Virus record (IMG/VR): IMGVR_UViG_3300025195_000001
DNA length: 43,628 bases
Direction: 5' to 3' (one strand)
Source of the DNA: a virus
This document shows positions 6,949 to 42,159 of the stretch, in pieces. Numbering within the stretch: position 1 is the first letter of the stretch; each line of letters opens with the position of its first letter. Position numbers and translations under genes: made by a program. The notes beneath the pieces were generated by a model. The model had not been told where the DNA came from and searched no databases. It saw only the letters and a program-made list of their open reading frames with translations.

Positions 6949-7301
6949 TATGGTATTACGTGTTTGCCGTTGAACTCGATGATGTATTTGATGTTGATCT
7001 TTTTAATCTGGCCGTTTTCCAGTTTTATATTCCTGGTCTTATTGCTGAAGTGGTTAGGGTTCTTCTTGACGATTTCTCGCTTTTCTGAAGGCTTGAAATT
7101 TTGAAGTGCGTAAATACTGTCGGGATCGTTCCCTTTTTCATTCATCACCAATTTTGCATTCTCGTAGCGATAAAATTTACCACCTTCTTTACTGTATTTA
7201 TTGAAACTTCTAACGGCAATATCAAATTTAATGGCACGGCCTTCTTTGTTTGGCGTGCGCATTTCTTCTAATACATCTTTGAGGTAGACGGTTTCTTTCA
7301 T
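6948..7301 (-). CDS. Hypothetical protein
   Basis: The track ORF 6948..7322 begins at a TTG. The first ATG (MKETVYLK) is at 7301, 30 nt downstream of the TGTCCTTTTTT motif. Its stop overlaps the portal ATG. Confidence 0.5.
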   Translation of the reverse strand: MKETVYLKDVLEEMRTPNKEGRAIKFDIAVRSFNKYSKEGGKFYRYENAKLVMNEKGNDPDSIYALQNFKPSEKREIVKKNPNHFSNKTRNIKLENGQIKKINIKYIIEFNGKHVIP

Positions 7302-7330
7302 ATTACGAATATGCCACGGCAATAGTCATC

Positions 7331-7362
7331 AAAAAAGGACAGCAAAGCGTCTGTCCTTTTTT
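7331..7362. promoter_or_regulatory. Perfect hairpin aaaaaaggacag-N8-ctgtcctttttt between divergent operons. It contains the TGTCCTTTTTT core.
   Basis: A 6-bp GC core stem (ggacag/ctgtcc) is flanked by A6 and T6 tracts that could extend the pairing to 12 bp. It lies between the minus-strand start at 7301 and the plus-strand start at 7406. Confidence 0.5.
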
Positions 7363-7405
7363 AGCGCTCTTTAGCTATGCACTTTTACAGTAAAACCTGT
7401 GAAAA

Positions 7406-8014
7406 TTGGCGAATAACAACGAATTAAAACTCACATCGAGCGACACGCATTTTGAAAACATTCTCGCGTATTATATGGATGATAAAACGCCAGAAGAAGT
7501 TCGTCTGGCTCGTTTATCTGAAACCGATAAAAAATTAAAGAAGCGTTGGGAAGCTGCATTCACTATGCTCTTGGAATTTAGAAGCCCTGAAGATGCAGCA
7601 AAAAAACTTCAGGAGTTATTCAAAATAAGTAAAGCTACCGCTTATAGAGATGTGCAACGCTGTGAAATGTTGTTTGGCTCTTTTAAACGGTTTGATCGGG
7701 AAGCGTGGCGATATATTTCTATTGAACGTAAACACAAACTCTATCAAAATGCATTAAAGAAGGGAGACCTCGAACTGGCATATAAAGTCGATAAAGAAAT
7801 TGACAAATTACTAGGTCTTCACGAGGAAGAATCGCCTATCGACTTAGATAAAATAGCTGCTCAAGATTACAATATCATTATGAGCAATAAACAAGAACGC
7901 TTGATAAAACAAATTTTAGCAAGTGGAGGCGCTGTCAATATGAATGTTGATAATACTGTAGAGATTGATTTTGAAGAATTGAAAAATACCTCTGAAGATG
8001 GCGAAGAAGATTAG
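7406..8014 (+). CDS. Putative terminase small subunit
   Basis: 202 aa, immediately upstream of the large terminase and overlapping it by 17 nt. It has a helical, basic N-terminal half and an acidic C-terminus. The track start is a TTG and the first in-frame ATG is at 7475. Confidence 0.5.
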   Translation: MANNNELKLTSSDTHFENILAYYMDDKTPEEVRLARLSETDKKLKKRWEAAFTMLLEFRSPEDAAKKLQELFKISKATAYRDVQRCEMLFGSFKRFDREAWRYISIERKHKLYQNALKKGDLELAYKVDKEIDKLLGLHEEESPIDLDKIAAQDYNIIMSNKQERLIKQILASGGAVNMNVDNTVEIDFEELKNTSEDGEED

Positions 8015-13684: not shown

Positions 13685-15007
13685 TTATTTTACGTCTTTA
13701 TAGATTGATGAATCAAGGTTTAGGTAAGCAAACTCACCTTCTTCGTCTTCCTGGGCTCCACCTGTGGTATGGGTTGCTCCCGGTTTACCATTAAGCACTT
13801 CAATTTGTGCGGTAAGTGCTGTGGCGATGTCTTCTGCAGAAGCGTCTTCTGCTAAATTTTCTACACCGGCTAAAGTGGCAGCATCACGTAAATTTTGAGT
13901 GGCTGCAGCAACTTTTGCCGTTTCTGCATCTACTGCTTTTTTACGCTCGTCTTTTTCTGTAGCCAGATTATCTTCTGCCTTTTTTTGCGCATCTTGTGCG
14001 GTTTTGATTTTTTCGGCATTTGGAGCAAGTGCAGCTTCTAAACTGTCTAACTGCTCGTCATTTAGATACGTGCCTTTTTCTGAGTTAGCTAAAGGGCTTT
14101 CTAAACCTAAAGCATTCTCAATATTAGGACGTGAGTTTTGTTTACTCATAGTATTAGTGGAATTTGAATTTGTTTTGTCTAATGCGAATACACGATCAAC
14201 GGCATCTTGTAGAGTTCCTAAAGAATCGACTAAACCTTTTTCTTTCGCTTCGGGACCAGGATAAGTTGCGCCTTTAAAAACTTCGTCTTTAATGTTTGGG
14301 CGAGTTTCTTTAATGTCGGCAATAAAATTGTCTACAAGCGGGTTAAGGTCTTCTTTGATGTAAGTTTTGTAATTACCTTCTAGAATGTCGCGGTAAGATT
14401 TGTTCTTTTCAGAACTTTGATCGGCGTAAAGCGTGTGCACTTTTGCACCTTTACTTTCGTAGAAACCGGTTAAATCTAAAAATTGAGCATACGCGCCAAT
14501 GCTACCAATTGCTTCAGCTCTTTTGTTGGCAATAATTTCTTTAGATCCTGAAGCAAAATAATATGCAGCAGAACAAAGTAAACCATCGGTATAAGTAACA
14601 ACCGGTTTTGGGTAGTTTAAAATATAATCTCTAAATTCTGGCGTTCCGTAAGCTTGGCCACCACCACTATCTACATCTAAAACAACACCTGCAACTTGAT
14701 CGTTAGTTTTTAAACGATCCATTACTTGCTGATGAAATTTAGTTCCTCGTGGTCCGCACTCTTGGCTGTATTTGTAAATAGGTGTTTTAATACTTATTAC
14801 AGATACAAATTTTTGAGCGCTTTCTTCTTCACCAGAATAAATACCCATCGAATTCATTTTTGTAAACTCTGGGCGTTTCTTATCGGTAGATTTTATTTCC
14901 AGACTTTTACCGTCTAGTATTCCAAACAAAAGCGGTAGATGACTCATACCGTAATTCTGTTCGATATACCAAGGTCGGTTAAAAAGACTGTGTAGATTAG
15001 AAATCAT
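13685..15007 (-). CDS. Prohead protease (peptidase S49/SppA-like) fused to a coiled-coil scaffold-like C-terminus
   Basis: 440 aa with GVVLDVDSGGGQAYG and LCSAAYYFASG (S49/ClpP-fold serine motif context). The C-terminal ~150 aa are Ala/Glu/Lys-rich and helical. Confidence 0.8.
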   Translation of the reverse strand: MISNLHSLFNRPWYIEQNYGMSHLPLLFGILDGKSLEIKSTDKKRPEFTKMNSMGIYSGEEESAQKFVSVISIKTPIYKYSQECGPRGTKFHQQVMDRLKTNDQVAGVVLDVDSGGGQAYGTPEFRDYILNYPKPVVTYTDGLLCSAAYYFASGSKEIIANKRAEAIGSIGAYAQFLDLTGFYESKGAKVHTLYADQSSEKNKSYRDILEGNYKTYIKEDLNPLVDNFIADIKETRPNIKDEVFKGATYPGPEAKEKGLVDSLGTLQDAVDRVFALDKTNSNSTNTMSKQNSRPNIENALGLESPLANSEKGTYLNDEQLDSLEAALAPNAEKIKTAQDAQKKAEDNLATEKDERKKAVDAETAKVAAATQNLRDAATLAGVENLAEDASAEDIATALTAQIEVLNGKPGATHTTGGAQEDEEGEFAYLNLDSSIYKDVK

Positions 15008-16270: not shown

Positions 16271-16310
16271 TCAAATACCCTCAATAACCGTCAAAAACCC
16301 TCAATAACCG
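16271..16310. repeat. Tandem 20-bp direct repeat (iteron-like)
   Basis: tcaaataccctcaataaccg is followed by tcaaaaaccctcaataaccg (19/20 identical) and then a degenerate third unit. Confidence 0.85.
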
Positions 16311-16515
16311 CCAATTTCCCAAACTGTATTTGAGTATGTTGTATCATTGCTTTAAAATTTAACAGAAAAACCCGTAACAGTATTTGAGTAATTTCATTAT
16401 ATGAGTGTATGAACCTATTTTACAAACAATAAATGGTAGTTGTAAACATACAGATTGTTTATAACTAGTGACATATCTGGGAACCAAATCAAAAAAAGGG
16501 TAAACAATTTATTCT

Positions 16516-16695
16516 TAATTTTGAAGGATAGGTATGAGAATAAATTTTTAAGTGTGCATAACTCTTTAAAAACAGGGAGATGCTAAAAAATGAGTGCTTT
16601 GATTTTATTCTTAAATTTGAAATATGAAATCCTTGGTAATAGGATATCCAAGGTTGAAATAAAAAAGCCGAGAACGGGAATTCTCGACTTTCATT
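16516..16695 (+). ncRNA. Candidate plus-strand small RNA(s)
   Basis: Two perfect TAnnTTTG boxes sit inside a duplicated tttattcttaa(t/a)tttgaa motif (16516..16523 TAATTTTG, 16612..16619 TAAATTTG). They are followed by the hairpin ccttgg/ccaagg (16631..16653) and a weak terminator-like hairpin cgagaa/ttctcg (16669..16686) with T-rich sequence after it. No ORF longer than 15 codons. Confidence 0.3.
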
Positions 16696-16804
16696 TATTA
16701 ACTCCTGTAAATTTCTGGAAATATGGAGTCGGTTATAATTTTGATTCTATCATTGGCTTGCCTCCTTGACAAGCTAATCGAATTACGACAAAAGTAATTC
16801 TAAC

Positions 16805-16833
16805 AACCCATTTGCGATGCAGGTGGGTTTTTT
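16805..16833 (+). terminator. Terminator-like hairpin with a T-tract on the plus strand
   Basis: The stem aaccca/tgggtt has a 13-nt loop and is followed by ttttt. Confidence 0.35.
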
Positions 16834-16971
16834 ATGGTTTGTTCCATAGAACAAAAATATATAATTTTTTTTATATTATATAAAAATTCTTTTATCAAAA
16901 GCAAATAGAGTTTTGATTAAAAATTTATCCCATCGAACTTTTTCGTGGTTCTGGAGGTTTCTTCATTGATG

Positions 16972-17694
16972 TTATTTTGGCAAGATCACACTTTTAGAAT
17001 TGGTATCAATGTCTTGAGAGTAAAAGTTAGGAACGGTATGTTCTTTAAAATCTTCATTAATAAATGCGTGCGGAATAAACTCTTCGATTTGTTTTTGGGT
17101 AAGATTTGGGTTAAGCCATTCGCCTTCCACTTCTGGATCTAGAACTAAGGGCATTCGCTTTTTCTTATTGTGTACATATTTAAAAAAGTCGTTGGCTTCT
17201 GTGGTGAGCAGCGTTACCGAAAATTCGGTATCTCCATCCATATCGATATCGCCATTGCCAATTTTGTTGTAAAGACCGGCAAACGCAAATAATTGATGAT
17301 CGGGTAAATAACAATATTTTGGTTCTGCTTTTCCTTTAAAATTATTGTCTGGATAGTGCGGTTCAAAAAAACCATCGGCAATAATTAAACAACGTCTGTG
17401 TAGCGCAGGATCTTTATAGGTTTTCTTTTGAAATACTTCTTCGCCTTTAGCATTCCAAGTTTTGTATTTGGAGTTTCTAAACTTTTCGATGTTGTTTTCG
17501 CTCCACTTCGGTATTAAGCCCCATTCCATCGGGTAGATGTGTTGCGGGTCCTCCATCGGGATGCAATACAGATTTGGGTACATATAACCGGCAGCAAAAT
17601 AATAAGGTTCGTAAAGCTCCGGGATAAGCATCGTAGCTTCAAAACGCTCTACGATCTGTTTTTCGGGTTTGGTGTTGGATGCGATATAGCACAT
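16972..17694 (-). CDS. SOS-response-associated peptidase (SRAP/YedK/HMCES family, abasic-site-binding protein)
   Basis: 240 aa starting MC (catalytic Cys2), with RRCLIIADGFFEP, FAFAGLY and RMPLVL, which match the conserved SRAP blocks. Confidence 0.9.
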   Translation of the reverse strand: MCYIASNTKPEKQIVERFEATMLIPELYEPYYFAAGYMYPNLYCIPMEDPQHIYPMEWGLIPKWSENNIEKFRNSKYKTWNAKGEEVFQKKTYKDPALHRRCLIIADGFFEPHYPDNNFKGKAEPKYCYLPDHQLFAFAGLYNKIGNGDIDMDGDTEFSVTLLTTEANDFFKYVHNKKKRMPLVLDPEVEGEWLNPNLTQKQIEEFIPHAFINEDFKEHTVPNFYSQDIDTNSKSVILPK

Positions 17695-17734
17695 AAAAGT
17701 TAGTTTGTGCTAAATATAAAAAAAATGCTAACAT

Positions 17735-17792
17735 CGAATATCACAAATAAACGTATGTAAATGCTTACAAACTTTTTTACTTGTGATATTCG
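17735..17792. promoter_or_regulatory. 12-bp perfect inverted repeat upstream of the SRAP gene
   Basis: cgaatatcacaa (17735..17746) and ttgtgatattcg (17781..17792) are 34 bp apart. A TATATTTA box (plus-strand taaatata, 17711..17718) lies between the repeat and the ATG. Confidence 0.45.
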
Positions 17793-17795
17793 GTA

Positions 17796-17908
17796 GTTGT
17801 GTCGCAATATGCTTTTGCCTTTGCGCTTAAAGATAGATAAAAGCAGGGCGTATATCAGCACGCAGTCCGCCGCTATTTAAAAGCAAACTGCGCACAACAA
17901 TGTATAAC
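17796..17908. repeat. Intergenic cassette A (mosaic family)
   Basis: Its ends gttgtgtcgca and tgcgcacaac can pair. It shares gcctttgcgc with B and C, and gcttaaagataga and gcgtatatc with F. It ends with gtataac. Confidence 0.55.
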
Positions 17909-17953
17909 AACAATGCGTCTCCTGGATAAATGAAAATGCTAGTCTTTATTTTT

Positions 17954-18157
17954 TTAGCTAAATAAACATTTCCCTTCAAGCTTAGTTATTTTTTGAATAA
18001 TAGCTTTTCTTTTTTGTTTTTCTAAGACCTTATTTACTAATTCAGGTATTTTCTCTATATTTTCATCTGTATAAAAAACACCTCCACCTTGGTTAATATT
18101 TCCTGTAGTTCCGTCAGGCATAATAGCTAATTTAATGTAATCTACTTTGTAACTCAT
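17954..18157 (-). CDS. Hypothetical protein
   Basis: 67-aa ORF flanked by cassettes A and B. Confidence 0.45.
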   Translation of the reverse strand: MSYKVDYIKLAIMPDGTTGNINQGGGVFYTDENIEKIPELVNKVLEKQKRKAIIQKITKLEGKCLFS

Positions 18158-18231
18158 AATTTCTAGTTTTAAATCGCCAAAAAAATGTAATGGCTTTGTT
18201 ATTAATTTATTTTTCGTGCCGTAGCACAGTT

Positions 18232-18423
18232 GTTATACTTATTCGTTCTAAGTAATATTTTTTGCCTTTGCGCTCAATATGATTTCTTACTCAAACTCTT
18301 AGCGAACGCCCGCAGTACTTGTGTTTAGCTTATGCAACCCTCATCAATGCGGGTTGGTTAATCTCGAAGTTGGCTAACGCCATTTGCAAACGCTTTCAAA
18401 AATACTACAAAGAACTACATATA
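18232..18423. repeat. Intergenic cassette B (mosaic family)
   Basis: It starts with gttatacttattcgttctaagt (19 nt shared with E) and carries gcctttgcgc. It holds a 31-nt hairpin block at 18332..18362 that is also found at 42134..42164, and the hairpin tggc-taac-gcca at 18371..18382. On the minus strand it has TTTG-N22-TATTTTTG, with the -7 box at 18397..18404. Confidence 0.65.
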
Positions 18424-18475
18424 AATCAAATTATGGCTTCGTATCCTGCGGATACAGACGCTCACAAATTAAAAA

Positions 18476-18787
18476 TTATTCAAGTTCTTTAGGTATTTCA
18501 GGAGTTGTTTTGTATTCCCACCATTCAGAACCGTCATATTCTCCTCTTTCAATCCAAGATCCGTCCACAAACCACAATGTGCCAAAAAGTTCTTGACCAC
18601 CATATCCACTATCGTAGTTAAAATCTAAACTATTTATAAATCTATCGAGATCTTCTTTGCTGTGGTTACATTTCAGAAGATAGCTAGTTCTATCATCATC
18701 CCAATCATCGCCTTTATATATTTCGGCACATTTTACTTTTGGGTTATTTTTCAATTGATCTAATAATTCAATCTTTGCATTTGTCAT
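18476..18787 (-). CDS. Hypothetical protein (Trp/Asp/Gly-rich)
   Basis: 103-aa ORF with the C-terminal block YDSGYGGQELFGTLWFVDGSWIERGEYDGSEWWEY. The family was not identified. Confidence 0.5.
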   Translation of the reverse strand: MTNAKIELLDQLKNNPKVKCAEIYKGDDWDDDRTSYLLKCNHSKEDLDRFINSLDFNYDSGYGGQELFGTLWFVDGSWIERGEYDGSEWWEYKTTPEIPKELE

Positions 18788-18851
18788 AATTTTTAATTTT
18801 AAAATCGTTATTTCCTTTTAATTTCTTCTGTTTTTAATTCCCATAACTTAG

Positions 18852-19061
18852 GTTTATACTTTCCGTTGGTTGTAATTTCACAAAGCCTTTGCGCTAATTT
18901 TGAATTAGCAAGTTTACGTTATCACTCTGCTTCAGTTTTTGTACTTGCAACGTTTTAGATCAACCCAAGTTCATTATTTCAACGAGATAGCCTAACGGCT
19001 TATGCTTACGCTATTTTGTAAAACTACCAAGCCCTAAGGGGCAACCAACACTGCATAACAG
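18852..19061. repeat. Intergenic cassette C (mosaic family, close paralogue of D)
   Basis: It aligns with 19324..19528 over about 190 bp, including an identical 42-nt block cgctattttgtaaaactaccaagccctaaggggcaaccaaca. Its ends ttggttg and caaccaa can pair. Confidence 0.85.
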
Positions 19062-19067
19062 TAATAA

Positions 19068-19286
19068 CTACCTTAGTTTTTCTTTAATATATTCTTTTAA
19101 GTCATCAAGGTCAATCTCTGTAAAGTCTTTATCGTAAAAAACTTTAAAATTAAAATCATCTACATTGGTTTGTACTATTAAAACGTGGTAGTCATTTAAT
19201 TTATTTTCTAATACTTTTTGTGTGTTTACAAACTCTTCTTCTGTTTGCATCATTGGTGATTCTACTATAAATATTGGTTTTGCCAT
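19068..19286 (-). CDS. Hypothetical protein
   Basis: 72-aa acidic ORF flanked by cassettes C and D. Confidence 0.45.
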   Translation of the reverse strand: MAKPIFIVESPMMQTEEEFVNTQKVLENKLNDYHVLIVQTNVDDFNFKVFYDKDFTEIDLDDLKEYIKEKLR

Positions 19287-19323
19287 TTTATTTTAATTTT
19301 AAAGTTTATATTCCGTTACTACT

Positions 19324-19528
19324 GTTATACAAATCCGTTGGTTGTAATTTTGCAAAGCCTTTGCCCGCAATTAGATTTCTTACTCAAATGTTATCACTCT
19401 GTTTCAGTTTTTGTACTTGCTTAATCTTAGATCAATCAAAGATCATTATTTCAACGAAGTTGGCTACGCCATAAGCCTGCGCTATTTTGTAAAACTACCA
19501 AGCCCTAAGGGGCAACCAACAATGTATA
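19324..19528. repeat. Intergenic cassette D (mosaic family, close paralogue of C)
   Basis: See cassette C. It also shares gttatacaaatccgtt with F and cgaagttggcta with B. Confidence 0.85.
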
Positions 19529-19580
19529 TAAAAAATAAACAAATAGGGCGCTTACTCGGGCGGAATAAACGCCAAACTAT

Positions 19581-19682
19581 CTACTTTTTAAAGAACTCCT
19601 TTATTAGCCAAATAACTAATAAGTAAAACAAGATTAAGATAGGTATTCCAACAACTATCCATAAAGTGAATTTCATCCACAT
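19581..19682 (-). CDS. Putative 33-aa transmembrane peptide
   Basis: Own translation: MWMKFTLWIVVGIPILILFYLLVIWLIKEFFKK. Its ATG lies 2 nt after the lipoprotein stop. It is below the 60-aa threshold of the ORF track. Confidence 0.4.
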   Translation of the reverse strand: MWMKFTLWIVVGIPILILFYLLVIWLIKEFFKK

Positions 19683-19684
19683 AA

Positions 19685-20086
19685 TTACTTAGCTTCTAAG
19701 ATTGGAAGTCCTGCTTCTGTTGGTATATAAATTCTGTCGCCCTTACCTTCTTTTAAAGCAATAACCATTAAATATTTCAAATATTCATTGTTGCCTTTTA
19801 AGCTTTCCCCTATAATTTCATTTGCTTTAGCTACACCTTTTGCGCGTTCAATTTCGGCTTGTGCTTCAGCTTTAGCAATTTTAATTTTTGCTTCTGCCTG
19901 CAAGGTTGCGCTTTCGTTTTGCGCTTTAGCTTCTTCGATCATTGCTTTTTTAGAACTTTCAGCTTCTAAAAGAATTGCGCGACCTTGGCTTTCTGCGTCT
20001 AACTCGTTTTGTTTTCTGTTAAAGTCATAACAAGAAGTTAAACTCAACACTAATACTGTTAATAATAAAAATTTTACATTTTTCAT
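19685..20086 (-). CDS. Lipoprotein with an SPFH/band-7 C-terminal-like helical region
   Basis: 133 aa with a signal peptide and lipobox (LSLTSC). An Ala/Glu/Lys-rich helix (AEAKIKIAKAEAQAEIERAKGVAKANEII) and YLKYLMVIALKEGKGDRIYIP resemble the C-terminal part of HflC/prohibitin-type proteins. Confidence 0.5.
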   Translation of the reverse strand: MKNVKFLLLTVLVLSLTSCYDFNRKQNELDAESQGRAILLEAESSKKAMIEEAKAQNESATLQAEAKIKIAKAEAQAEIERAKGVAKANEIIGESLKGNNEYLKYLMVIALKEGKGDRIYIPTEAGLPILEAK

Positions 20087-20189
20087 TTTATAAAAATTTA
20101 ATTTTGTGCCTACTCTATTCAGTTTTCAGCTTCCCTGTGTTTCGTAGTTTGCCGGCTACCGCCGTCACGCCCTATTATTTATTACTTTT

Positions 20190-20310
20190 TATATACTTAT
20201 TCGTTCTAAGTCATTTGCATTTCCCAACGCTCAATTAAGATAGTGGGCGTTGCGGTGGGGTACGCAAGCCAACGCTCACAATGCAAACGTCAAAGAACAA
20301 CGTATAACAG
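20190..20310. repeat. Intergenic cassette E (mosaic family)
   Basis: It shares atacttattcgttctaagt and cgctcaat with B. Its ends tatacttattcgttct and agaacaacgtata can pair. Confidence 0.55.
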
Positions 20311-20350
20311 TAATTTGGCTACGTGATTATTTGGTTAGGTTTAGGCTACT

Positions 20351-20563
20351 TTATTTTTCTTCAATTTGATAAGATAAAACCCTATATGGATGTGTTTTTT
20401 TAGATTTCTTTATTGCTTTTTTAGCTGCTATAATGGTTTTAAATTCATCTGCATTTTCTCTTTTCAGAGTTCTGCCAGGATCTCCCGCCCAAGGAGCTAA
20501 GTAAAGCTCTTTTTCATTGTTTCCTATTCTAACTATATACATAATTTTGTTTTTTAATCCCAA
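20351..20563 (-). CDS. Hypothetical protein (basic)
   Basis: 70-aa ORF flanked by cassettes E and F. Confidence 0.45.
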   Translation of the reverse strand: MGLKNKIMYIVRIGNNEKELYLAPWAGDPGRTLKRENADEFKTIIAAKKAIKKSKKTHPYRVLSYQIEEK

Positions 20564-20624
20564 AAAATAAAGTGGGATGGTTAATGTTTATTTTTAAAAT
20601 TCTGTTCTTAATCGCCAAACTACG

Positions 20625-20751
20625 GTTATACAAATCCGTTATATGCAATTGCCAAAAATCCAACAGCTTAAAGATAGAGAGCAATTACGCGTATATCTGG
20701 AGCGCAACCAGCCGCCTAATTTTTTGGCAACAGTCTGCTTCGCCATATAAC
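20625..20751. repeat. Intergenic cassette F (mosaic family)
   Basis: It shares gttatacaaatccgtt with D, and gcttaaagataga and gcgtatatc with A. Its ends gttatatg and catataac can pair. Confidence 0.55.
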
Positions 20752-20828
20752 ACGTGGTATAGTGCATAGCTTTAGGTTCGTGTTTATTTCAAAGTTTTGT
20801 GCTTGTTTGCCCATAATTAAAATATTTT

Positions 20829-21161
20829 TTACCTCGGTATATTATAAACTCTTTCATTCCAATCCGCAAAAACAAGAGGCTTATCATATTCATTTGGTTT
20901 AGACATAACACATCTTTCACATTCCCTCGCACACCATTTATTTAGCCTTTCCGATTTATTAGTAGGTTTAGCTTGTCCGTCTTCGTATGTTCCTGGGTCT
21001 ATTGGCGCTTCCTTTAGTTCGTTATCAGATAAAAAACAGTAGTCATCTTCATCATCTGTTAGTTGTTCTTTTGGTCGTGAGTTATTTCCCCACGCTTTAT
21101 TACATTTTTCATCACAACCAATTTTTGCTTTTTGTCCGAAGAAGGTTATAGATTTTTCCAT
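20829..21161 (-). CDS. Hypothetical Cys-rich protein
   Basis: 110 aa with GCDEKCNKAWG and WCARECERC motifs. Function unknown. Confidence 0.5.
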   Translation of the reverse strand: MEKSITFFGQKAKIGCDEKCNKAWGNNSRPKEQLTDDEDDYCFLSDNELKEAPIDPGTYEDGQAKPTNKSERLNKWCARECERCVMSKPNEYDKPLVFADWNERVYNIPR

Positions 21162-21272
21162 TTATTAAAATATTTTAATTATTAATTCAGTTTTTAATTC
21201 AAAGTTTGTGCACTTCAAGGCTACGCACCATACCACTATCCGTTAGCATTGATTAAGCTACAACTGCGCGAA

Positions 21273-21461
21273 TTAAAATTTTATTCTAGGTTTAGGTTTT
21301 AGTGGTTTTTCTGCTTTTGTTGAGCAATTTTGGCACACGTCTTCCATTTTTGTACAATTTCCATCTTGAGGATTTATAAGTTTTTCGAGAAATAAAGTTT
21401 CGGTACCACATTGATAGCAATACTTTTTATGAAATCTCATCTTGATGATGTATTTGTTCAA
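21273..21461 (-). CDS. Hypothetical zinc-ribbon protein
   Basis: 62 aa with CYQCG ... CQNCS. Confidence 0.45.
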   Translation of the reverse strand: MNKYIIKMRFHKKYCYQCGTETLFLEKLINPQDGNCTKMEDVCQNCSTKAEKPLKPKPRIKF

Positions 21462-21747
21462 ATTTGTGATCGCAACGCTTAATCACTTTGTTTAAAGCTT
21501 CCAGATCATTAAAGTTTAATCGAATACGATCACCGTTTACTAACTCAATACAAAGCCAACCGTTTTCGATGTAAGATTTTTTTAGGTTGGGTAAATTATT
21601 GATGTTTGTTTTTTTTGGCGGCGGTGTTGGAGCTTTATAATCTGAGATTCCTTTTTTGCCTATAAAAGAACTATGAGCCAATCCCACGATGTAACCTAAA
21701 ATTCCAGAACAAAAGAAGATCCAGCCTATACTTAGAAATTCGCCCAT
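21427..21747 (-). CDS. Hypothetical membrane protein
   Basis: 106 aa with an N-terminal TM helix (LSIGWIFFCSGILGYIVGLA). Confidence 0.45.
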   Translation of the reverse strand: MGEFLSIGWIFFCSGILGYIVGLAHSSFIGKKGISDYKAPTPPPKKTNINNLPNLKKSYIENGWLCIELVNGDRIRLNFNDLEALNKVIKRCDHKFEQIHHQDEIS

Positions 21748-21750
21748 AGC

Positions 21751-22122
21751 TTAAAAATTTCGTTTTGCGGTTTCTTTATGAATACTTAAATCGAATATTG
21801 ACTTACCCACCTTTACAGCTTTAGCATTTTTATGGACTAACTCGTAGTAAGTAACTTCATTAATATTGGTGATCTTTCTCACCATTTTGGGCTGAGAACG
21901 TTTTATTAAATTATAAATGAGTGGCTGGTATTGCTTGAGTTCTTTTTCAATTTTAGAAACTTCTAGCAGAAATCGCTCTTCTTGTGTTAATCTTTTCCGC
22001 TGCGGATTGATTAAATGTTTCTTCTTAAAGATCTTGGCATATTTCTCCGGGATCAGTTTGATGTATTTCCCGTCGAGTAATACTTTTGTACGCTCATTTT
22101 GCGTGATAGATAACCGACTCAT
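21751..22122 (-). CDS. Hypothetical protein (basic)
   Basis: 123-aa ORF that overlaps the upstream gene by 4 nt (ATGA). Confidence 0.5.
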   Translation of the reverse strand: MSRLSITQNERTKVLLDGKYIKLIPEKYAKIFKKKHLINPQRKRLTQEERFLLEVSKIEKELKQYQPLIYNLIKRSQPKMVRKITNINEVTYYELVHKNAKAVKVGKSIFDLSIHKETAKRNF

Positions 22123-22448
22123 AGCTGCATATTTTCTTTAAGTTTCTCAAAACGATCGGTGTCGGCTAAAGTTTCACATTTTAAAACTTCGAAACCTCTT
22201 AATTTTAATTCTTCAATTAGCAGATGGGTTTCAAAAATGGTTGTGTCTTTTACTTTTTTAGATTCCTCTTCTACAACATCACAATTTTCGAGTGCATAAT
22301 CTTTAATGGTCTGGTCGTTTAAATGCTCAAGCACTAAATCTTCTAAAAATGGTTGATCTTCTGTAGTGTATTCTTTTTCAGTGGGAATAAATTCTTGTAT
22401 TTCAGAATCCCAAGAGTTTGTTTTAATGGTAATTTTAGTGATACTCAT
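22119..22448 (-). CDS. Hypothetical protein (acidic)
   Basis: 109-aa ORF. No motif. Confidence 0.5.
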   Translation of the reverse strand: MSITKITIKTNSWDSEIQEFIPTEKEYTTEDQPFLEDLVLEHLNDQTIKDYALENCDVVEEESKKVKDTTIFETHLLIEELKLRGFEVLKCETLADTDRFEKLKENMQL

Positions 22449-22587: not shown

Positions 22588-23637
22588 TTATTTTTCTTCC
22601 TTATTAAAGTAAACCAGGTAGTAATACATCTGGCGCTCATCGTCCCATCCTTTCTCGATAAACTTTTCGGCACTTTCAGGATTAATAAAGTTGAGCTTGA
22701 TCTGAATGTTGGTGTCTAGGTTTATGAGGCTTTTCAGCTTTTTTTGTACGGTAGTTACGGCGGTGTTAGAAATGGGGAACTCGGTTAGATCTTCAATTTT
22801 GTATTTTGCGCCTTTTTCAGCTTTATAATTGCTGAACTCCGGGACCAACTCGGGGTTTTCGAGTACTTCATTTAAAAATGAATCTTCCTGAAACTCATCG
22901 TGCGATGCAAAATGATTCACTGCGCGGTTCATAAACATAATTTCTTGCTGCTTGTCTTCTGCTGGACGCACGACATCTTTGGCAAAATTCTCACAAAACT
23001 TCAGGTACTTTTTGGTATGAAAATCGCTGTCTTCCATTTCTTCTACACCTAGAAAATCTTCAATCCAATATTTGGTGTCGTAGCGGTTAGAATCGATAAA
23101 TAATACACGAGGTTCTTCTTCCAAAGTAATAATCGCACCTTTGTCTAATTTATTCAGGTTAACACCTTCCTTTAAGATGGCATCCAGACGGGTTTCTTTT
23201 TGCTCAAACTGAATAAACTCTTGCTTCACTTCACTTTTGAAAATGCCAATAGCAAAAACCTTTTCATTATTGATAAGTATATTTTCAATTTTACAGATAT
23301 AGAGTTCTCCGGTTTTTATATGCGGATGATTTCCGCAGCTATATAAGTGATATGCAATAGCTTCGTGTATTTTATTTGGTGGTACAAAATCACCTTCATC
23401 TTCAAAAATTTGTCTTTTACCAAATAATGATTGAATTGTTGATTCTTCAGAAAATTTATGAAACTGTAAGTCTTTCTCACGAAATGGTTTTAAGAAGAAT
23501 TCTTTTAACAGTGGTCTAATCTCGTCGTTAAGCTCGTAAGGTTCTTGGCTTAAAAACAATTGCTCGTTGCGAGCGCGGTTGCCTACCTTATGGATGTAAA
23601 GGTTCTCTAATTGGGCATTGTACAAATTGATGTTCAT
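22588..23637 (-). CDS. Nucleoid-associated protein (NdpA/YejK-like, NA37 family)
   Basis: 349 aa. The N-terminal LENLYIHKVGNR block is typical of Bacteroidetes members of this family, and the size fits. Confidence 0.55.
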   Translation of the reverse strand: MNINLYNAQLENLYIHKVGNRARNEQLFLSQEPYELNDEIRPLLKEFFLKPFREKDLQFHKFSEESTIQSLFGKRQIFEDEGDFVPPNKIHEAIAYHLYSCGNHPHIKTGELYICKIENILINNEKVFAIGIFKSEVKQEFIQFEQKETRLDAILKEGVNLNKLDKGAIITLEEEPRVLFIDSNRYDTKYWIEDFLGVEEMEDSDFHTKKYLKFCENFAKDVVRPAEDKQQEIMFMNRAVNHFASHDEFQEDSFLNEVLENPELVPEFSNYKAEKGAKYKIEDLTEFPISNTAVTTVQKKLKSLINLDTNIQIKLNFINPESAEKFIEKGWDDERQMYYYLVYFNKEEK

Positions 23638-23824: not shown

Positions 23825-24559
23825 TTAGAAAATTACTTTTCTGTTCGTGTTTTTATGGTTGTAAACTCTCTCGATATTAAAGATGTAATCTTTGGTAGAT
23901 CCTTGCCGATCCATTAACATTGGTGCTTGTTTGATTTTTTCCTTTAAAACATCAAAATCACAAAGCCCTTTTTTCTTAATTTCCTGTGTTGCGGAAATTA
24001 AATTTCTATCTTTAAAAAAAACATAACGATCAAATAATGAGTGGTTAAGCTTTAAAAGCTCGATGGTTTCATCATAATAGTTTATTTTAAAATCTCCGGA
24101 TCTAAATTCTTCACCAATATTTTTGCTTCCTCTTACTTTTCCTGAAGCTAATAACTCTGTTGTGGTAGAAATACCTGTATGAAATTCTTTCATTACTTTG
24201 TGAAGCGTTTCATAATCTTCAATACCAAGTTTTTCGTAACATCTTAAAAAATCCATTTGTGTCCATTTATCTTGGCGACTATTTAGTGTTGCTATTTGTT
24301 TTAAATCTAACTCTTCACTAATTACATAGTAAACAGGATTTTCTGAAATTACAGAAGCTTCAAAGCGGTGTTGACCATCAATAATATTTAATTTTTCATT
24401 TTTTGAATACACTATAATCGGGCATAATGGAAGAAGGTTTAATCCATTTTTTATATCCTGAACTATCTTTTGGATTTTCTTTTTATTCAGGTTTCTATTA
24501 CCATTAATGTTTTCAAAATCATCGTAGTTTGTTGAACTTTTAATCTGTAAATTTTCCAT
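23825..24559 (-). CDS. ParB N-terminal-domain-like protein (DGQHR motif)
   Basis: 244 aa with IIDGQHRFEA preceded by a beta-strand-like IIVY. This pattern occurs in ParB/sulfiredoxin-fold and DndB-like DGQHR proteins. Confidence 0.6.
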   Translation of the reverse strand: MENLQIKSSTNYDDFENINGNRNLNKKKIQKIVQDIKNGLNLLPLCPIIVYSKNEKLNIIDGQHRFEASVISENPVYYVISEELDLKQIATLNSRQDKWTQMDFLRCYEKLGIEDYETLHKVMKEFHTGISTTTELLASGKVRGSKNIGEEFRSGDFKINYYDETIELLKLNHSLFDRYVFFKDRNLISATQEIKKKGLCDFDVLKEKIKQAPMLMDRQGSTKDYIFNIERVYNHKNTNRKVIF

Positions 24560-28201: not shown

Positions 28202-28375
28202 TTAAAAAAGGACGCGCATTTCTTGGGTATAAAGCTTTAACTGTCGCTTATAGATCTGCTGCAGTTCTTCCTTCTGTTGTGGGGTAACATTATAAAGTTT
28301 ATCTAGCCTTGTGAGGTTAGCTTTTAAGCGGGCAATTGCCGTTTTATAGAATATGCGGTCCTTCTTTACTTTCAT
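28202..28375 (-). CDS. Hypothetical protein
   Basis: The track ORF extends to 28405. The ATG at 28375 (MKVKKDRIF) overlaps the LuxR-type gene stop (TAATG) and is the likelier start. Confidence 0.45.
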   Translation of the reverse strand: MKVKKDRIFYKTAIARLKANLTRLDKLYNVTPQQKEELQQIYKRQLKLYTQEMRVLF

Positions 28376-28995
28376 TAGTTTATTACATTTGCGCGCATCG
28401 CACACATTAATAATCCGGTTTTGCTAAACACGTTCGCTTTTCTAAAAAATGAACGCTTATGTTGGTTAAAGGTTGAAACGGCAACACCAAGCTCCATCGC
28501 TACTACTTCATCTTTATAGTCTTCTGCAAATAAGTCTAGCATTTTCAATTCTCTAGGCTTTAAGGGGCTGCCGTTAAGTTTTATCGTTTTAAAGTTGAGT
28601 GAAACGCAATCTGTAGAATGCCGGTAGTTTTCCGGTTCTTGCAGATCACCGTTAATTATGTCTGGCGTATCGTCGAGGCCACCGTACATAAAATACGTGT
28701 ATAATTCTACTCGTCTGGTAAAAGAGAGGGGTTGGTGGTTATGTTGTAAAGCATTAATATGCTTTTGTGCTTCTTTGTTGGAGTTGAAGGCATTGGCAAG
28801 CAACGTAAAGTCTTTTTTATCGAGTTCTTTAAACTCGTGTGTTTTGCCGTTTTGTATAAATTGTACCTCCATCGTTTCTGGGCGACCAAAAAATTCTATT
28901 CTGGTGTCGTTTTGTAGCAACCCCGCAATTAGGTGTTGCACTTGTTGGTTGTTTGTTGTAAGTTTGTCCATAAGATGTTTTATTGATTCGTTCAT
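28375..28995 (-). CDS. LuxR/GerE-type HTH transcriptional regulator
   Basis: The C-terminus LKPRELKMLDLFAEDYKDEVVAMELGVAVSTFNQHKRSFFRKANV fits the LuxR-type HTH pattern. The start was moved to the ATG at 28995 (MNESIKHL) because the upstream 75 nt form a perfect 11-bp hairpin plus the TAACGCTTAA motif. Confidence 0.6.
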   Translation of the reverse strand: MNESIKHLMDKLTTNNQQVQHLIAGLLQNDTRIEFFGRPETMEVQFIQNGKTHEFKELDKKDFTLLANAFNSNKEAQKHINALQHNHQPLSFTRRVELYTYFMYGGLDDTPDIINGDLQEPENYRHSTDCVSLNFKTIKLNGSPLKPRELKMLDLFAEDYKDEVVAMELGVAVSTFNQHKRSFFRKANVFSKTGLLMCAMRANVIN

Positions 28996-29002
28996 TAAAA
29001 TA

Positions 29003-29013
29003 TTAAGCGTTAA
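29003..29013 (-). promoter_or_regulatory. TTAACGCTTAA motif, copy 4
   Basis: The plus strand reads ttaagcgttaa, 8 nt upstream of the ATG at 28995. Confidence 0.4.
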
Positions 29014-29054
29014 GTCCTGAAGGGAGTTCCAGTCCAACTTCAGGACTTTTTTTT
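29012..29054. terminator. Perfect 11-bp stem hairpin between the first two early genes and the LuxR-type gene
   Basis: aagtcctgaag (29012..29022) pairs with cttcaggactt (29038..29048). A T-tract follows on the plus strand, which is an A-tract preceding the hairpin on the minus strand. Confidence 0.5.
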
Positions 29055-29099
29055 GTGCTGTTATCTCCAACAGCGATGAGCAGGGTTTGCTCGAGTAAC

Positions 29100-29571: not shown

Positions 29572-29642
29572 AGTATTCTGCTATTGCTCAAACAAATACA
29601 ATATTATATATTTGCTAGTAGTTAATTAATTGCTTGTTAAGG

Positions 29643-29650
29643 CAAATATA
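29643..29650 (-). promoter_or_regulatory. -7 box TATATTTG of the early-leftward promoter
   Basis: A perfect TAnnTTTG on the minus strand (plus-strand caaatata). The operator palindrome lies immediately upstream of it. Confidence 0.5.
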
Positions 29651-29720: not shown

Positions 29721-30149
29721 ATGCTGAAAATCAAAGAGATAAGAGAGAATAAGAATATATCACAAGATAAGCTTGTTGAACTTACTGGAATTCCTAAACG
29801 AACCTACGTAAATTACGAAAATGGGAAATCCGATATACCATTCTCAAAGTTGCAGAATATTGCAAGTGCTTTGAATGTAAGAGTACAGGATTTTATTGAG
29901 GAGAAAAAAGTGGATAAAGTAAATGAAACTCCTCCACCTTATGAAGATGAAGTAAATCTCTTGAGTTTAAAAAAAGACCTTAAAACAATTTATCAAGGTT
30001 TGACCACTAATTTTAATACCATTAGTGAAGGTGTGTTTCACGTTCTGCAGGACACACAAGAAATAAAAAGATTTATTGGTGAGCTAGACCCCAAAGCCAT
30101 TAATAATGCAAGTGAAGGATTGAATAAATTTTTAGAAGAACATAAATAA
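29721..30149 (+). CDS. XRE-family HTH repressor (cI-like), without a peptidase S24 domain
   Basis: 142 aa. The N-terminus KEIRENKNISQDKLVELTGIPKRTYVNYENGKSDIPFSKLQNIASAL is a classic XRE HTH. The C-terminal 80 aa lack a Ser/Lys autoprotease pattern. Confidence 0.8.
   Translation: MLKIKEIRENKNISQDKLVELTGIPKRTYVNYENGKSDIPFSKLQNIASALNVRVQDFIEEKKVDKVNETPPPYEDEVNLLSLKKDLKTIYQGLTTNFNTISEGVFHVLQDTQEIKRFIGELDPKAINNASEGLNKFLEEHK
29849..29867. promoter_or_regulatory. Operator-like palindrome, copy 2, inside the repressor coding sequence
   Basis: An exact 19-bp copy of 29658..29676. It encodes KLQNIAS of the HTH recognition region. Confidence 0.5.
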
Positions 30150-31948: not shown

Positions 31949-32003
31949 CTTAAAATCCAATGAACATTAGTTCGTACGGGTTCAAGTCCCGTCCCGAGTA
32001 CCA
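31949..32003 (+). other. attP core: 3' portion of a tRNA-Leu(UAA)-like gene, from the anticodon loop to CCA
   Basis: It contains the anticodon loop cttaaaa, tccaa, a long variable arm gaac-atta-gttc, the T arm acggg-ttcaagt-cccgt, the acceptor 3' strand cccgagt, a discriminator a and cca. The 5' half is absent: the upstream cagaa cannot pair with tccaa. Confidence 0.75.
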
Positions 32004-32007
32004 AGCG

Positions 32008-32034
32008 CAAAACCCCTGTTTTTACAGGGGTTTT
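32008..32034 (+). terminator. Terminator hairpin following the tRNA fragment
   Basis: aaaacccctg-ttttta-caggggtttt. Confidence 0.7.
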
Positions 32035-32092
32035 CGTGTTTTTAGCCTCGACTTTTTCAATATGAAAAAAGACGAGAACACAACAAATGAGC

Positions 32093-32109
32093 ATAGAAAC
32101 GGCCATAGA
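32093..32109 (+). promoter_or_regulatory. Candidate integrase arm-type site (P' arm)
   Basis: atagaaacggccataga, a direct repeat of 31850..31866 on the other side of the core. Confidence 0.5.
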
Positions 32110-32124
32110 TTTTTTGAGTTTTCT

Positions 32125-42132: not shown

Positions 42133-42136
42133 GATG

Positions 42137-42158
42137 CAACCCGCATCGATGCGGGTTG
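42137..42158. terminator. Perfect 22-nt palindrome hairpin between convergent units
   Basis: caacccgcatcgatgcgggttg. On the plus strand it is followed by gttaattttt. The 31-nt block 42134..42164 recurs with 2 mismatches at 18332..18362. Confidence 0.65.
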
Positions 42159-42159
42159 G

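Follow-up and report, generated by a model that had tools for sequence, protein, structure and literature searches.

The spacers A-F, which separate the small genes of a minus-strand array in a temperate phage of marine Flavobacteriaceae (genome size about 43 kb), form a single mosaic family of non-coding elements. The array lies at 17954-21161 of the window, i.e. of the whole stretch of 43,628 nt that was analysed, and contains seven small genes with spacers of 111-398 nt. We speculate that every spacer serves as a portable cassette for intercistronic control and insulation, similar to the PeSL elements of T4-type phages, that works through a fold at the RNA level and is specific to this phage lineage. 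This is a tentative explanation that we consider quite possible but somewhat short of likely.

The array stands out by its layout, as a sequence-only reading of this DNA had already pointed out: the median intergenic gap in the window is 15.5 nt (greedy ORF map) whereas the consecutive gaps of the array are 259, 318, 280, 398, 264, 265 and 111 nt, the 398-nt gap shrinking to 294 nt if a 33-aa ORF is real. All fetched public copies of exactly the same phage are 100% identical. The locus and its cargo genes are the following.

16300..21270, minus strand: hypervariable accessory locus (cassette array, SRAP gene and part of a long non-coding stretch), delimited by the loss of homology between the window and the related phage L100
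20829..21161, minus strand: cargo gene g110, 110 aa, no family
20351..20563, minus strand: cargo gene g70, TTG start; public gene calls use an ATG that gives 63 aa
19685..20086, minus strand: cargo gene g133, predicted lipoprotein (phrog_11227)
19581-19682, minus strand: possible 33-aa membrane ORF, 3' of g133
19068..19286, minus strand: cargo gene g72, no family
18476..18787, minus strand: cargo gene g103 (phrog_3972), nucleotide identity 74-76% with a gene of T5-like enterobacterial phages
17954..18157, minus strand: cargo gene g67, no family

The kinship of the spacers proposed in the sequence-only reading is borne out by pairwise blocks and by profile links. C and D align over 133 nt (85.7% identity, E 2e-25) and over a further 31 nt (93.5%), and share an exact 42-nt block (19009-19050 and 19480-19521). 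The other shared blocks named there were also recovered, namely an exact 20-mer of B and E (E 1e-5), 22 nt of D and F (95%) and gcttaaagataga...gcgtatatc of A and F, and A and B have an exact 15-mer in common that includes gcctttgc. A terminator-like hairpin inside element B (18332-18362) recurs, as claimed, at 42134-42164 (93.5% over 31 nt, E 2e-7). In profile searches B matched D across about 200 nt (E 5e-7), an element of a Mesonia prophage matched F (E 3e-5) and A matched E weakly (E 0.01).

The elements are 124-212 nt long and have the same order on the gene strand: X', P2, a core of 58-133 nt, P2' and a conserved 3' block, X, downstream of which a small GC hairpin and an A-rich leader precede the next ATG. 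X' reads GTTATAC-nn-GTTnnnnn and X reads ATTR-N5-6-AAC-G-nAnnn-GTATAAC-n-GTAG. The individual elements and the signals next to them are listed below.

21228..21264, minus strand: minimal element of spacer G, by sequence reading a mini-hairpin GTT(G)TAGC / GCTAAC, then the X variant GGATAG-TGGTATGG
20623..20754, minus strand: element F, type-1 core; P1 GTTATATG/CATATAAC, P2 TTGCCAAAAA/TTTTTGGCAA, X core 20627-20640
20188..20311, minus strand: element E, short core; P1 GTTCT/AGAAC, P2 CGTTTGCATT/AATGCAAATG, X core 20192-20205
20107..20139, minus strand: DUF805b-like RNA motif in the leader of g133 (RF02914, 35.5 bits, E 1.5e-7, just under the gathering threshold of 35.6)
19547..19573, minus strand: intrinsic-terminator-like hairpin (11 bp and a T-run) within spacer D, upstream of element D
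19322..19532, minus strand: element D, type 2, long core; P1 GTTGGTTG/CAACCAAC, P2 TAGTTTTACAAA/TTTGCAAAATTA, X core 19326-19339
18851..19062, minus strand: element C, type 2, paralogue of D; X core 18855-18867
18229..18427, minus strand: element B, type 2; P1 GTTCT/AGAAC, P2 GTAGTATTTTT/AAAAATATTAC, X core 18234-18247
17783..17910, minus strand: element A, type 1, the last of the array; helix GTTGTGCGCAGT-TGCTTTT / AAAAGCA-ATTGCG-CACAAC, variant X AAC-TACCGA-ATATCAC
17735..17792, minus strand: inverted repeat of 17 bp with a 24-nt loop and 94% complementarity; it lies between element A and the start codon of the SRAP gene

The AATGCTAACGGA block of spacer G is also present in L100 at the same backbone junction, the P2 of element F is identical to that of element S4 of phage L060, and RF02914 (DUF805b) scores 46.3 bits at L009 6197-6229. 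The terminal module of element A resembles the final element of the L007 array (7504-7695).

Comparison of the copies argues strongly that the helices closing the elements covary. The pairs of P1 are Watson-Crick in 51 out of 51 cases over 7 arm haplotypes, with 3-4 pair types at positions 4-7, and P2 (9 haplotypes) has 100 standard pairs out of 108, cognate arms pairing at 93% and non-cognate arms at 46%; since the underlying arm alignment was hand-curated to fit the structure, these counts lean towards it. The flanks used for duplex energies were delimited by independent landmarks, and here the mean was -17.2 kcal/mol for cognate 5'/3' flanks as opposed to -9.7 +/- 3.7 for non-cognate ones. 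The inverted ends noted earlier do therefore pair beyond chance, but the outer pair, P0 (gttatac...gtataac), is the weakest helix (48/63 standard pairs) and the inner P1 and P2 are better supported; that the outer ends are the least conserved pairing had escaped the sequence-only reading. The compensatory changes it described in a small hairpin of B, C and D (U-A to A-U, G-C to C-G) were found as stated. An asymmetric internal loop of 3 x 6 nt separates two short helices, and P0, P1 and P2 together make up an interrupted helix of 20-25 bp.

The predicted folding is strand-specific. In minimum-free-energy predictions for the gene strand, A-F all show the closing helix; this strand folds more stably than the opposite one in six out of seven spacers (F is tied) and, for the flank duplexes, in 9 out of 10 elements. 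G.U pairs outnumber A.C pairs 15:4 overall (p 0.02) and 11:1 in P2, an excess that favours folding of the gene strand. Whole-spacer folding z-scores are modest (-2.3 to +1.2) except for A (-4.8). An interrupted helix of 20-25 bp that is predicted to fold preferentially on the mRNA strand would be consistent with RNase III-type processing, one of the three roles suggested earlier.

The interior of the elements consists of one weakly conserved hairpin and a CU-rich single-stranded tract, and it is here that a different explanation has to be discussed: the cores may be small RNA genes, and the closing helices processing stems as in rRNA and tRNA precursors. Cleavage would then free P2-closed RNAs of 60-150 nt that act in trans or bind protein, and the array would amount to paralogous phage sRNAs alternating with small genes. 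Besides the gene-strand-specific fold, this would account for the core motifs GCGTGCTGATATACG and CTCTATCTTTAAG, which are kept between phages (window A/F, L007 7112/7504, L060 S3) and which, together with the AGCG..GGC boxes, the insulator model leaves unexplained. Predicted folds retain the central hairpin and the unpaired CU-rich tract in 6 out of 6 type-1 copies, and a swap of the hairpin arms (ACGC...GCGT in S4, GCGT...ACGC in A) is suggestive of covariation. However, no part of the element is more variable or more dispensable than the core, which is absent in G, L060 S6 and L100 4809 and swapped for unrelated sequence in L099; the consensus energy from RNAalifold is weak (-5.4 kcal/mol, six copies), and a search of the phage for a complementary target of the CU tract found none. 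No Rfam family matches the cassettes, in line with the earlier failure to recognise a named RNA family. We consider small RNA genes unlikely, although not negligibly so; of the structured RNA or leader role suggested earlier, the closing helix is strongly supported by covariation while the interior offers one weak hairpin and no Rfam family.

Block X is kept even in copies that lack the 5' arm and core (window G, L060 S2/S6, L100 4809, L042 3688). A strict X motif was searched in the window and in loci anchored on the major capsid protein (MCP) gene, giving 22 matches on the gene strand versus 0 on the opposite strand; 20 out of 21 upstream matches are intergenic, 34-182 nt ahead of the next ATG. 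That X keeps a constant place ahead of the next start codon points to an expression signal. X matches neither sigma-70 nor the Bacteroidetes -33/-7 consensus. The block and its strand-specificity are not mentioned in the sequence-only reading.

The promoter matches reported there are present in B, C and D, but are not conserved in A, E and F. The 5' arm of B carries the Bacteroidetes -33/-7 consensus with a perfect -7 box and a spacer of 22 (TTTG-N22-TATTTTTG), and C and D carry near-matches (TTG-N19-TAGTTTTA in the 5' arm of D). Such matches were not seen in the copies of L060, L007 and L100 inspected by eye. Sigma-70 enrichment was not seen, and a search for a phage sigma factor identified none. 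The terminator-like hairpin at 19547-19573 precedes element D, whose 5' arm provides the best match to a host-type promoter on the downstream side of the hairpin. A classical terminator is excluded for the closing helix itself, since no U-tract follows it on the 3' side.

Could the cassettes act purely at the level of DNA? X and the AGCG..GGC boxes would then be parts of promoters or sites bound by a phage regulator, much as operators are, or the 'stoperators' of Cluster A mycobacteriophages, which are likewise strand-oriented, and the complementarity of the arms would be functionless in RNA. The sequence of X is indeed kept with or without a pairing partner, its orientation follows transcription (22:0) at a promoter-like distance from start codons, and LuxR-type, ParB-like and NA37 DNA-binding proteins are encoded just upstream of the array; the GerE/LuxR-type protein (231 aa) is a generic regulator only. 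Yet the sequence of P2 differs from copy to copy and remains complementary, and binding sites give no account of why G.U outnumbers A.C on the gene strand. Arms 60-190 nt apart are not known to extrude as a cruciform in duplex DNA. On balance we find a purely DNA-level role improbable, slightly more so than small RNA genes.

The cassette family is found in at least 10 related phages and prophages, including Mesonia L007, L060, L100, L099 and L013, a recurrence not noticed in the sequence-only reading; L007 is a prophage of Mesonia sp. HuA40. The same cassettes flank unrelated genes, as that reading would lead one to expect: the cargo proteins of the window, L007 and L060 are unrelated with the exception of one pair, and L100, L007 and L060 have 'empty' slots X...X' with no ORF. 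A covariance model built on four seed copies found further copies on the gene strand only (L060 S3 4e-13, S6 2e-4, L017/L084 4e-3); element A matches with E 0.1, and F (20620-20743) matches by construction, being one of the four seeds. The backbones of the window and L100 are 85-97% identical and homology ends exactly at the first X: identity is 97% as far as the stop codon of g62 (window 21271) and returns, at 95.6%, from window 16299 downwards, with nothing alignable in between. Among the three roles suggested earlier, PeSL-like mobile cassettes are the best supported by these comparisons, albeit partly: unrelated cargo, empty slots and the breakpoint at the first cassette speak for them while the promoter half is weak.

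The cassettes might also be recombination sites that fold as single strands, like integron attC, the attP hairpin of CTX phage or the pdif/dif modules of Acinetobacter (PMC13141974), at which a tyrosine recombinase or HUH enzyme would insert or excise cargo. In both cases small same-orientation genes (ORFans here) have structured imperfect inverted repeats in between, structure is kept more than sequence and site orientation alternates (X' and X along our array); the 3 x 6 nt internal loop, the empty slots, the breakpoint of near-identical phages and small tyrosine recombinases (266 and 301 aa) within the same locus of L099 and L100 can be added. Nevertheless, the GTT...AAC order around the covarying helices is the reverse of attC (RYYYAAC...GTTRRRY), the spacers of X' (3 nt) and X (6 nt) are unequal and not equivalent to 11-6-11 Xer sites, 124-212 nt exceeds the usual attC range, no integron integrase (IntI) is present, the sole recombinase encoded in the window being a 464-aa phage integrase 12 kb from the array, and the fixed distance to the next start codon indicates an expression signal, so we hold this explanation to be very unlikely. 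Least probable are MITE-like selfish elements spreading inside the accessory region: terminal inverted repeats, the length of 124-212 nt, several copies per genome in several phages and the MITEs reported in phages, among them phages assigned to Flavobacterium hosts (PMC11602168), would fit, but no copy has a visible target-site duplication, all have one orientation relative to genes and occur in this locus only, the inner repeats vary yet covary, unlike transposase-recognised termini, and truncated forms retain the 3' block alone.

It is instructive to compare the cassettes to PeSLs (Arbiol et al. 2010, PMC2839356; Comeau et al. 2014, PMC4122927), whose definition and overlap of stem-loop and promoter are given in the former paper. 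Both are repeated composite non-coding cassettes that run between two consecutive ORFans, from stop codon to start codon, concentrate in a hypervariable region, have conserved blocks common to copies and phages, and bound indels or replacements between close relatives; in both the stem overlaps a gene-proximal expression signal, a putative one here. The cassettes do not belong to the PeSL family of T4-type phages, and tests of membership among attC sites, dif modules, MITEs and PeSLs in the strict sense gave no positive result. Our phage is a temperate 43-kb phage of a Bacteroidota host rather than a T4-type myovirus, and its cassettes lack a sigma-70 promoter and a Shine-Dalgarno sequence. 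They are 124-212 nt instead of about 100 nt long, have a long-range interrupted helix around a conserved core instead of a simple G/C-rich stem-loop, and show covarying, gene-strand-specific pairing; promoter activity, terminator activity and mini-circles would be putative features here.

The early genes of phage T7 are separated by RNase III processing sites, which are local hairpins of 50-60 nt. Here too, related irregular structures, predicted to be double-stranded RNA with internal loops and a helix of about two turns, lie between consecutive cistrons of one presumed transcription unit. In contrast to T7, the strands are 60-190 nt apart, cleavage is only putative, and the single-stranded block X and the core motifs have no T7 counterpart. 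Lineage-specific, strand-oriented short intergenic motifs upstream of many genes, sometimes with inverted repeats alongside, are also known as the start-associated sequences (SAS) and extended SAS of Cluster K mycobacteriophages (PMC3203893) and the stoperators of Cluster A, but those are 13-17 bp long and genome-wide while ours, about 30-45 nt in length, is restricted to the accessory array and embedded in a far larger covarying fold.

Returning to the control and insulator cassettes, we propose that X, the small GC hairpin and the A-rich leader would form a sequence-specific expression signal for the downstream cargo gene, X being most likely a phage-factor-dependent promoter or a determinant of mRNA 5' ends. 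Upstream of X, the transcript of the preceding gene would fold on the mRNA strand into the interrupted P0-P1-P2 helix, whose 3' strand is X itself and which would enclose the core. In read-through RNA this fold would hide X and mark the cistron boundary, and attenuation or cleavage by a dsRNA-specific RNase, e.g. RNase III, might insulate each accessory gene. If X is a promoter, the helix would form solely in read-through RNA, and if B, C and D initiate in their 5' arms, those transcripts could not form it. As the same blocks are repeated on either side of every cargo gene and are common to several phages, they may double as crossover points by which ORFan genes are gained, lost and swapped. 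Given their recurrence around unrelated genes in at least 10 related phages, the cassettes are probably portable signals for expression and insulation and crossover points for the shuffling of accessory genes in this phage lineage.

The spacers between the small genes of the array fit a description as composite, portable intercistronic cassettes, a proposal drawn from sequence comparison and predicted folding. All genes of 16972-22448 are on the minus strand. The median intergenic gap of the window is 15.5 nt, and the consecutive gaps of 17695-21272 measure 259, 318, 280, 398 (294), 264, 265 and 111 nt. Six large elements (A to F) and a minimal one (G) lie in these gaps:

Spacer elements of the array
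17783-17910, minus strand, element A, type 1
18229-18427, minus strand, element B, type 2
18851-19062, minus strand, element C, type 2
19322-19532, minus strand, element D, type 2
20188-20311, minus strand, element E, type 1
20623-20754, minus strand, element F, type 1
21228-21264, minus strand, element G, minimal form (mini-hairpin plus block X)

Read on the gene strand, A to F have one common order of parts. The 5' part consists of block X' (GTTATAC-nn-GTTnnnnn), an optional linker, the 5' arm of the inner closing helix P2, a WWAGCG..GGC box and the core; the 3' part contains a second AGCG..GGC box, the 3' arm of P2, the conserved gene-proximal block X (ATTR-N5-6-AAC-G-nAnnn-GTATAAC-n-GTAG), a small GC hairpin, an A-rich leader and the ATG of the next gene. 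With both boxes counted, the core is 58-62 nt long in the type-1 elements A, E and F and 130-133 nt long in B, C and D, which are of type 2; the boxes and the core motifs are conserved. Two arm orders coexist, X'...core...X and X...empty...X'. The sequence blocks which the sequence-only reading had described as shared between spacers were all recovered and have a low chance expectation, and profile searches gave matches for B-D over ~200 nt (E 5e-7) and for C-D (E 1e-32) as well as a weak one for A-E. The reported second copy of a hairpin of element B, at 42134-42164, was also found: it has a perfect 9-bp stem directly past the stop codon (42160) of a 123-aa gene and, since it faces an apparent small plus-strand ORF, may terminate transcription in both directions. 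In L007, the prophage of Mesonia sp. HuA40, a comparable hairpin at about 6170-6200 is oriented the other way round with respect to the genes. Positions 17735-17792, just upstream of the SRAP gene, form a separate inverted repeat of 17 bp (94% complementary, 24-nt loop), the main source of the strong folding z-score (-4.8) of spacer A; a related hairpin, TTGTAAGCnTTTRCA, comes after the final element of L007's array.

The window is the genome of a temperate phage or prophage, with the following landmarks:

Landmarks of the phage genome
12658-13683, major capsid protein (MCP), head module, left of the array
13685-15007, S49 protease, head module, left of the array
28375-29070, LuxR-type regulator (231 aa)
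29721-30149, plus strand, CI-like HTH repressor, which with the integrase faces the leftward early operon
31960-33354, plus strand, tyrosine integrase (464 aa), the sole recombinase found in the window

Its capsid homologues (56-88% identical) belong to prophages of Mesonia, Zunongwangia, Aequorivita, Galbibacter, Tenacibaculum and related Flavobacteriaceae; INPHARED holds no cultured phage resembling the window at the DNA level, and the window has no tRNA or tmRNA. Two queried window proteins were listed by index in 42 collection blocks. Six public contigs were fetched, from five public samples (ENA, JGI, Logan) that are unrelated to one another; each matches the window at 100% identity over 12-21 kb, so that they offer no polymorphisms usable for testing. 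Such identity points to a prophage carried by a strain that has been sequenced widely, or to a contaminant that recurs. Perfect Bacteroidetes-type promoters (TTG-N19-21-TAnnTTTG) stand back to back at 29614 (+) and 29643 (-). The pair, within 29584-29650 (TATATTTG -7 boxes on both strands), separates the CI-like repressor gene from the early genes that run leftward and is probably the genetic switch. Genes for a ParB-like protein (phrog_12305; 23825-24559) and an NA37 nucleoid-associated protein (22588-23637), both on the minus strand, are located just upstream of the array. On the late side, an 831-nt non-coding stretch upstream of g154, the first conserved gene there, carries a tandem direct repeat, GGTTATTGAGGGT (x2), at about 16285-16335 (-); it is conserved at 7540-7575 of the related locus L100, within a 95.6% identical block, and is a candidate signal for late regulation or packaging.

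The most consistent part of the cassettes is block X. Across the window and the MCP-anchored loci, the strict X pattern has 22 matches on the gene strand and 0 on the other, where by our own estimate chance would give about 1-2 per strand. Nearly all upstream matches (20/21) are intergenic, 34-182 nt ahead of the next ATG. The block is found in at least 10 related phages with capsid identities to the window down to 56%, is retained where the 5' arm and the core are absent and, within the window, is limited to the array. We propose that X would act as a lineage- and strand-specific signal serving the downstream gene.

The cassettes recur in related phages. L007 (capsid protein identity 88%) is laid out alike, with gaps of 125-275 nt between the small genes of 4702-7503, and has elements homologous to A and F, with a different closing P2 (GTACAAAAAA/TTTTTTGTAT). 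The IMG/VR contig 2593339303_000001 (L060) has six consecutive spacers of the family: S3 is a full element with P2 TTTAAAAT/ATTTTAAA, S4 is of the F type and shares its P2 with F of the window, and S2 and S6 are truncated to the AGCG box and X. Another locus, L013, contains an F-like element in which P1 has two compensatory changes and P2 is different, and additional copies are present in L099 and L100. A covariance model built from four copies matched L060 S3 (4e-13), L060 S6 (2e-4), L017/L084 (4e-3) and element A of the window (0.1), always on the gene strand. Relatives were found neither by an SRAP-anchored IMG/VR search nor with an exact 22-mer from the block shared by C and D; collection scans with short X words gave mostly chance matches in coding DNA, those in L060, L056, L066, L121, L126 and L132 being the only apparently genuine ones, and an nhmmer search with a 28-nt X profile was too insensitive. 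No element of the window, L007, L060, L100, L013, L099, L009 or L042 matched Rfam at or above the gathering threshold. The only Rfam match, separate from the cassettes, is a DUF805b motif (RF02914) at 20107-20139 (-), in the leader of g133, a lipoprotein gene; its 35.5 bits fall just below the gathering threshold (35.6). The motif also occurs in the related prophage L009 at 6197-6229 (+) with 46.3 bits, and according to Pfam the genes downstream of these motifs do not encode DUF805 proteins.

Minimum-free-energy folds placed a long closing helix in each of A to F. When 34-nt flanks were set by the AGCG landmarks without using pairing, cognate flanks had a mean duplex energy of -17.2 kcal/mol as opposed to -9.7 +/- 3.7 for non-cognate ones; this energy matrix is independent of the alignment used for counting pairs. 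The sequence-only reading had proposed that the spacer ends can pair, and the inner helices P1 and P2 do covary, while the outer P0 (GTTATAC/GTATAAC) is the weakest, with standard pairs at 48/63. Seven haplotypes of P1 were seen: GTTGTG/CACAAC, GTTCT/AGAAC, GTTGGTTG/CAACCAAC, GTTATATG/CATATAAC, GTTACC/GGTAAC, GTTGTAGG/CCTACAAC and GTTGTGCGTA/TACGCACAAC. With the arms registered by hand, i.e. in an alignment fitted to the structure, all 51 of 51 pairs of P1 are Watson-Crick, positions 4-7 showing 3-4 pair types, and the nine haplotypes of P2 give 100/108 standard pairs (93% paired for cognate and 46% for non-cognate arms). Such registration was required for the analysis of arm pairing: RNAalifold found no structure in eight type-1 elements aligned simply with MAFFT, since their arms did not fall into register. 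An X-anchored best-duplex search over 230 nt was uninformative owing to its background of -14 +/- 4 kcal/mol. The GTT/AAC ends of P1 are invariant and adjoin an asymmetric loop of 3 x 6 nt. The small hairpin of B, C and D, for which compensatory change had been reported, is indeed kept through two double substitutions. There are more G.U pairs than A.C mismatches, 15:4 overall and 11:1 within P2, and the more stable duplex is on the gene strand in 9/10 elements, from which we infer that what folds is one strand with the polarity of the genes, in the simplest case the transcript. In a read-through RNA, the mRNA-strand fold with X as its 3' strand would sequester X and mark the cistron boundary.

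The same fold bears on RNase III-type processing of the kind that takes place between T7 early genes, which may be its function as far as the structural model goes. T7-type signals are ~20-bp irregular dsRNA between cistrons of one transcript, and the predicted P0, P1 and P2 together comprise 20-27 pairs, likewise with internal loops and on the mRNA strand. The product of interest may also be an excised core RNA. In the type-1 cores a single central hairpin is retained and a CU-rich tract, CTCTATCTTTAAG, stays unpaired; no convincing structure was seen in the remaining core, and a phage-wide search for mRNA targets of the tract found none. The tract agrees at 7/9 positions with the E. coli boxA; a boxA-like reading was dropped.

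Purely DNA-level operator or promoter arrays may likewise account for the repeats. The promoter matches claimed for B, C and D do exist and sit in the 5' arms of P2: B has a perfect Bacteroidetes consensus (TATTTTTG) with a spacer of 22, and C and D match at 7/8 positions (TTG-N19-TAGTTTTA). A, E and F have none, and none was seen by eye in the copies of L060, L007 and L100. A predicted intrinsic terminator at 19547-19573, just upstream of element D, means that the downstream genes probably need a restart, which fits a promoter in D. A sigma-70 scan showed no enrichment (18 sites, 23.9 +/- 4.8 expected from shuffles), and X fits none of the testable promoter consensuses. An ECF-sigma promoter was rejected for X, the AAC-N13-16-GTAG spacing being unsuitable; sigma-54 and lac operator resemblances were considered and dropped, as were CRISPR-repeat or RNA anti-CRISPR mimicry (the likeness is limited to GTTG...CAAC ends) and iterons, pac sites and parS sites (wrong distribution).

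The cargo changes from phage to phage. Cargo proteins are unrelated among the window, L007 and L060 except for L060 g80 and L007 g79b, a pair that has the same type of upstream element as well. L100 and the window have a backbone 85-97% identical; homology ends at the stop codon of g62 (21271) and resumes at 16299, and in both the variable segment starts with AATGCTAACGGA, the first X. Several spacers that contain X, ~100 nt without an ORF, and X' (L100 4358-4500, L007 5517-5650 and 6142-6290, L060 S1) are empty gene slots. The repeated conserved blocks could serve as crossover points. In L099 and L100 the locus corresponding to the array instead encodes small tyrosine recombinases (266 and 301 aa; L099 6846-7646, L100 5550-6455) and DNA methyltransferases. 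Within the window array, g103 (18476-18787; phrog_3972) resembles a gene of T5-like phages of Escherichia, Salmonella and Klebsiella: the nucleotide identity at 18485-18663 is 74-76%, and about 200 records contain matches, an unusually high cross-phylum DNA similarity for a Flavobacteriaceae phage.

It is useful to compare the cassettes with known systems. The PeSLs (promoter-early stem-loops) of T4-type phages are portable intercistronic cassettes whose stem-loop often overlaps the promoter boxes (PMC2839356). The suggested analogy holds for the layout, as seen in the gene map, the gap survey and the locus that varies between the window and L100, but not for the sigma-70 promoter, which is absent. 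PeSL stem-loops are terminators or attenuators that overlap or adjoin a promoter; here we see a covarying helix with X as its 3' strand and no U-tract after it. PeSL cassettes bound indels and replacements among close relatives and form mini-circles; the window/L100 breakpoint at the first X and the empty slots may be counterparts of the former. Given the missing sigma-70 promoter, the other phage type and the other structure, the cassettes are placed outside the PeSL family. MITEs are a poor match, as no copy has a target-site duplication and all copies are on the gene strand at one locus (the scan covered phage loci).

A hairpin-dependent recombination system may also be considered, in which the hairpin would be two short helices around an asymmetric bubble, adjoining the invariant AAC|G...GTATAAC block. 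The covarying helices read 5'-GTTnnnnn...nnnnnAAC-3' rather than in the attC order (RYYYAAC...GTTRRRY), which appears only in the ORF-less X...X' arrangements, and the 464-aa phage integrase is the window's only recombinase, with no integron integrase. The Xer dif (pdif) geometry of 11 + 6 + 11 bp (28 bp) is not reproduced either, the same two arms being separated by 6 nt in X and 3 nt in X', although the alternating orientation of pdif sites is present here. We regard it as very improbable that the cassettes are the recombination sites of an integron- or dif-module-like, phage-borne gene-cassette system, in which a tyrosine recombinase or HUH nuclease would recognise the gene-strand hairpin in single-stranded DNA and ORFan genes would be inserted, excised and exchanged at a fixed hotspot separating the early module from the late one.

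It is only partly understood how temperate phages can take up small accessory genes (morons, ORFans, candidate anti-defence genes), express them and exchange them while their core programme stays undisturbed, and to our knowledge dedicated non-coding 'linker' cassettes are almost unknown outside T4-type phages. In this phage lineage of marine Flavobacteriaceae, a conserved, strand-specific and structurally constrained cassette stands at every cargo-gene boundary. The existence of a cultured lysogen, Mesonia sp. HuA40, makes it a tractable test case for distinguishing RNA processing, transcription insulation and recombination. If the proposal of intercistronic cassettes is true, X together with the covarying helices would be a searchable signature for accessory-gene hotspots in Bacteroidota phages and, in a phylum with atypical promoters and translation signals, a candidate for a phage-specific expression signal.
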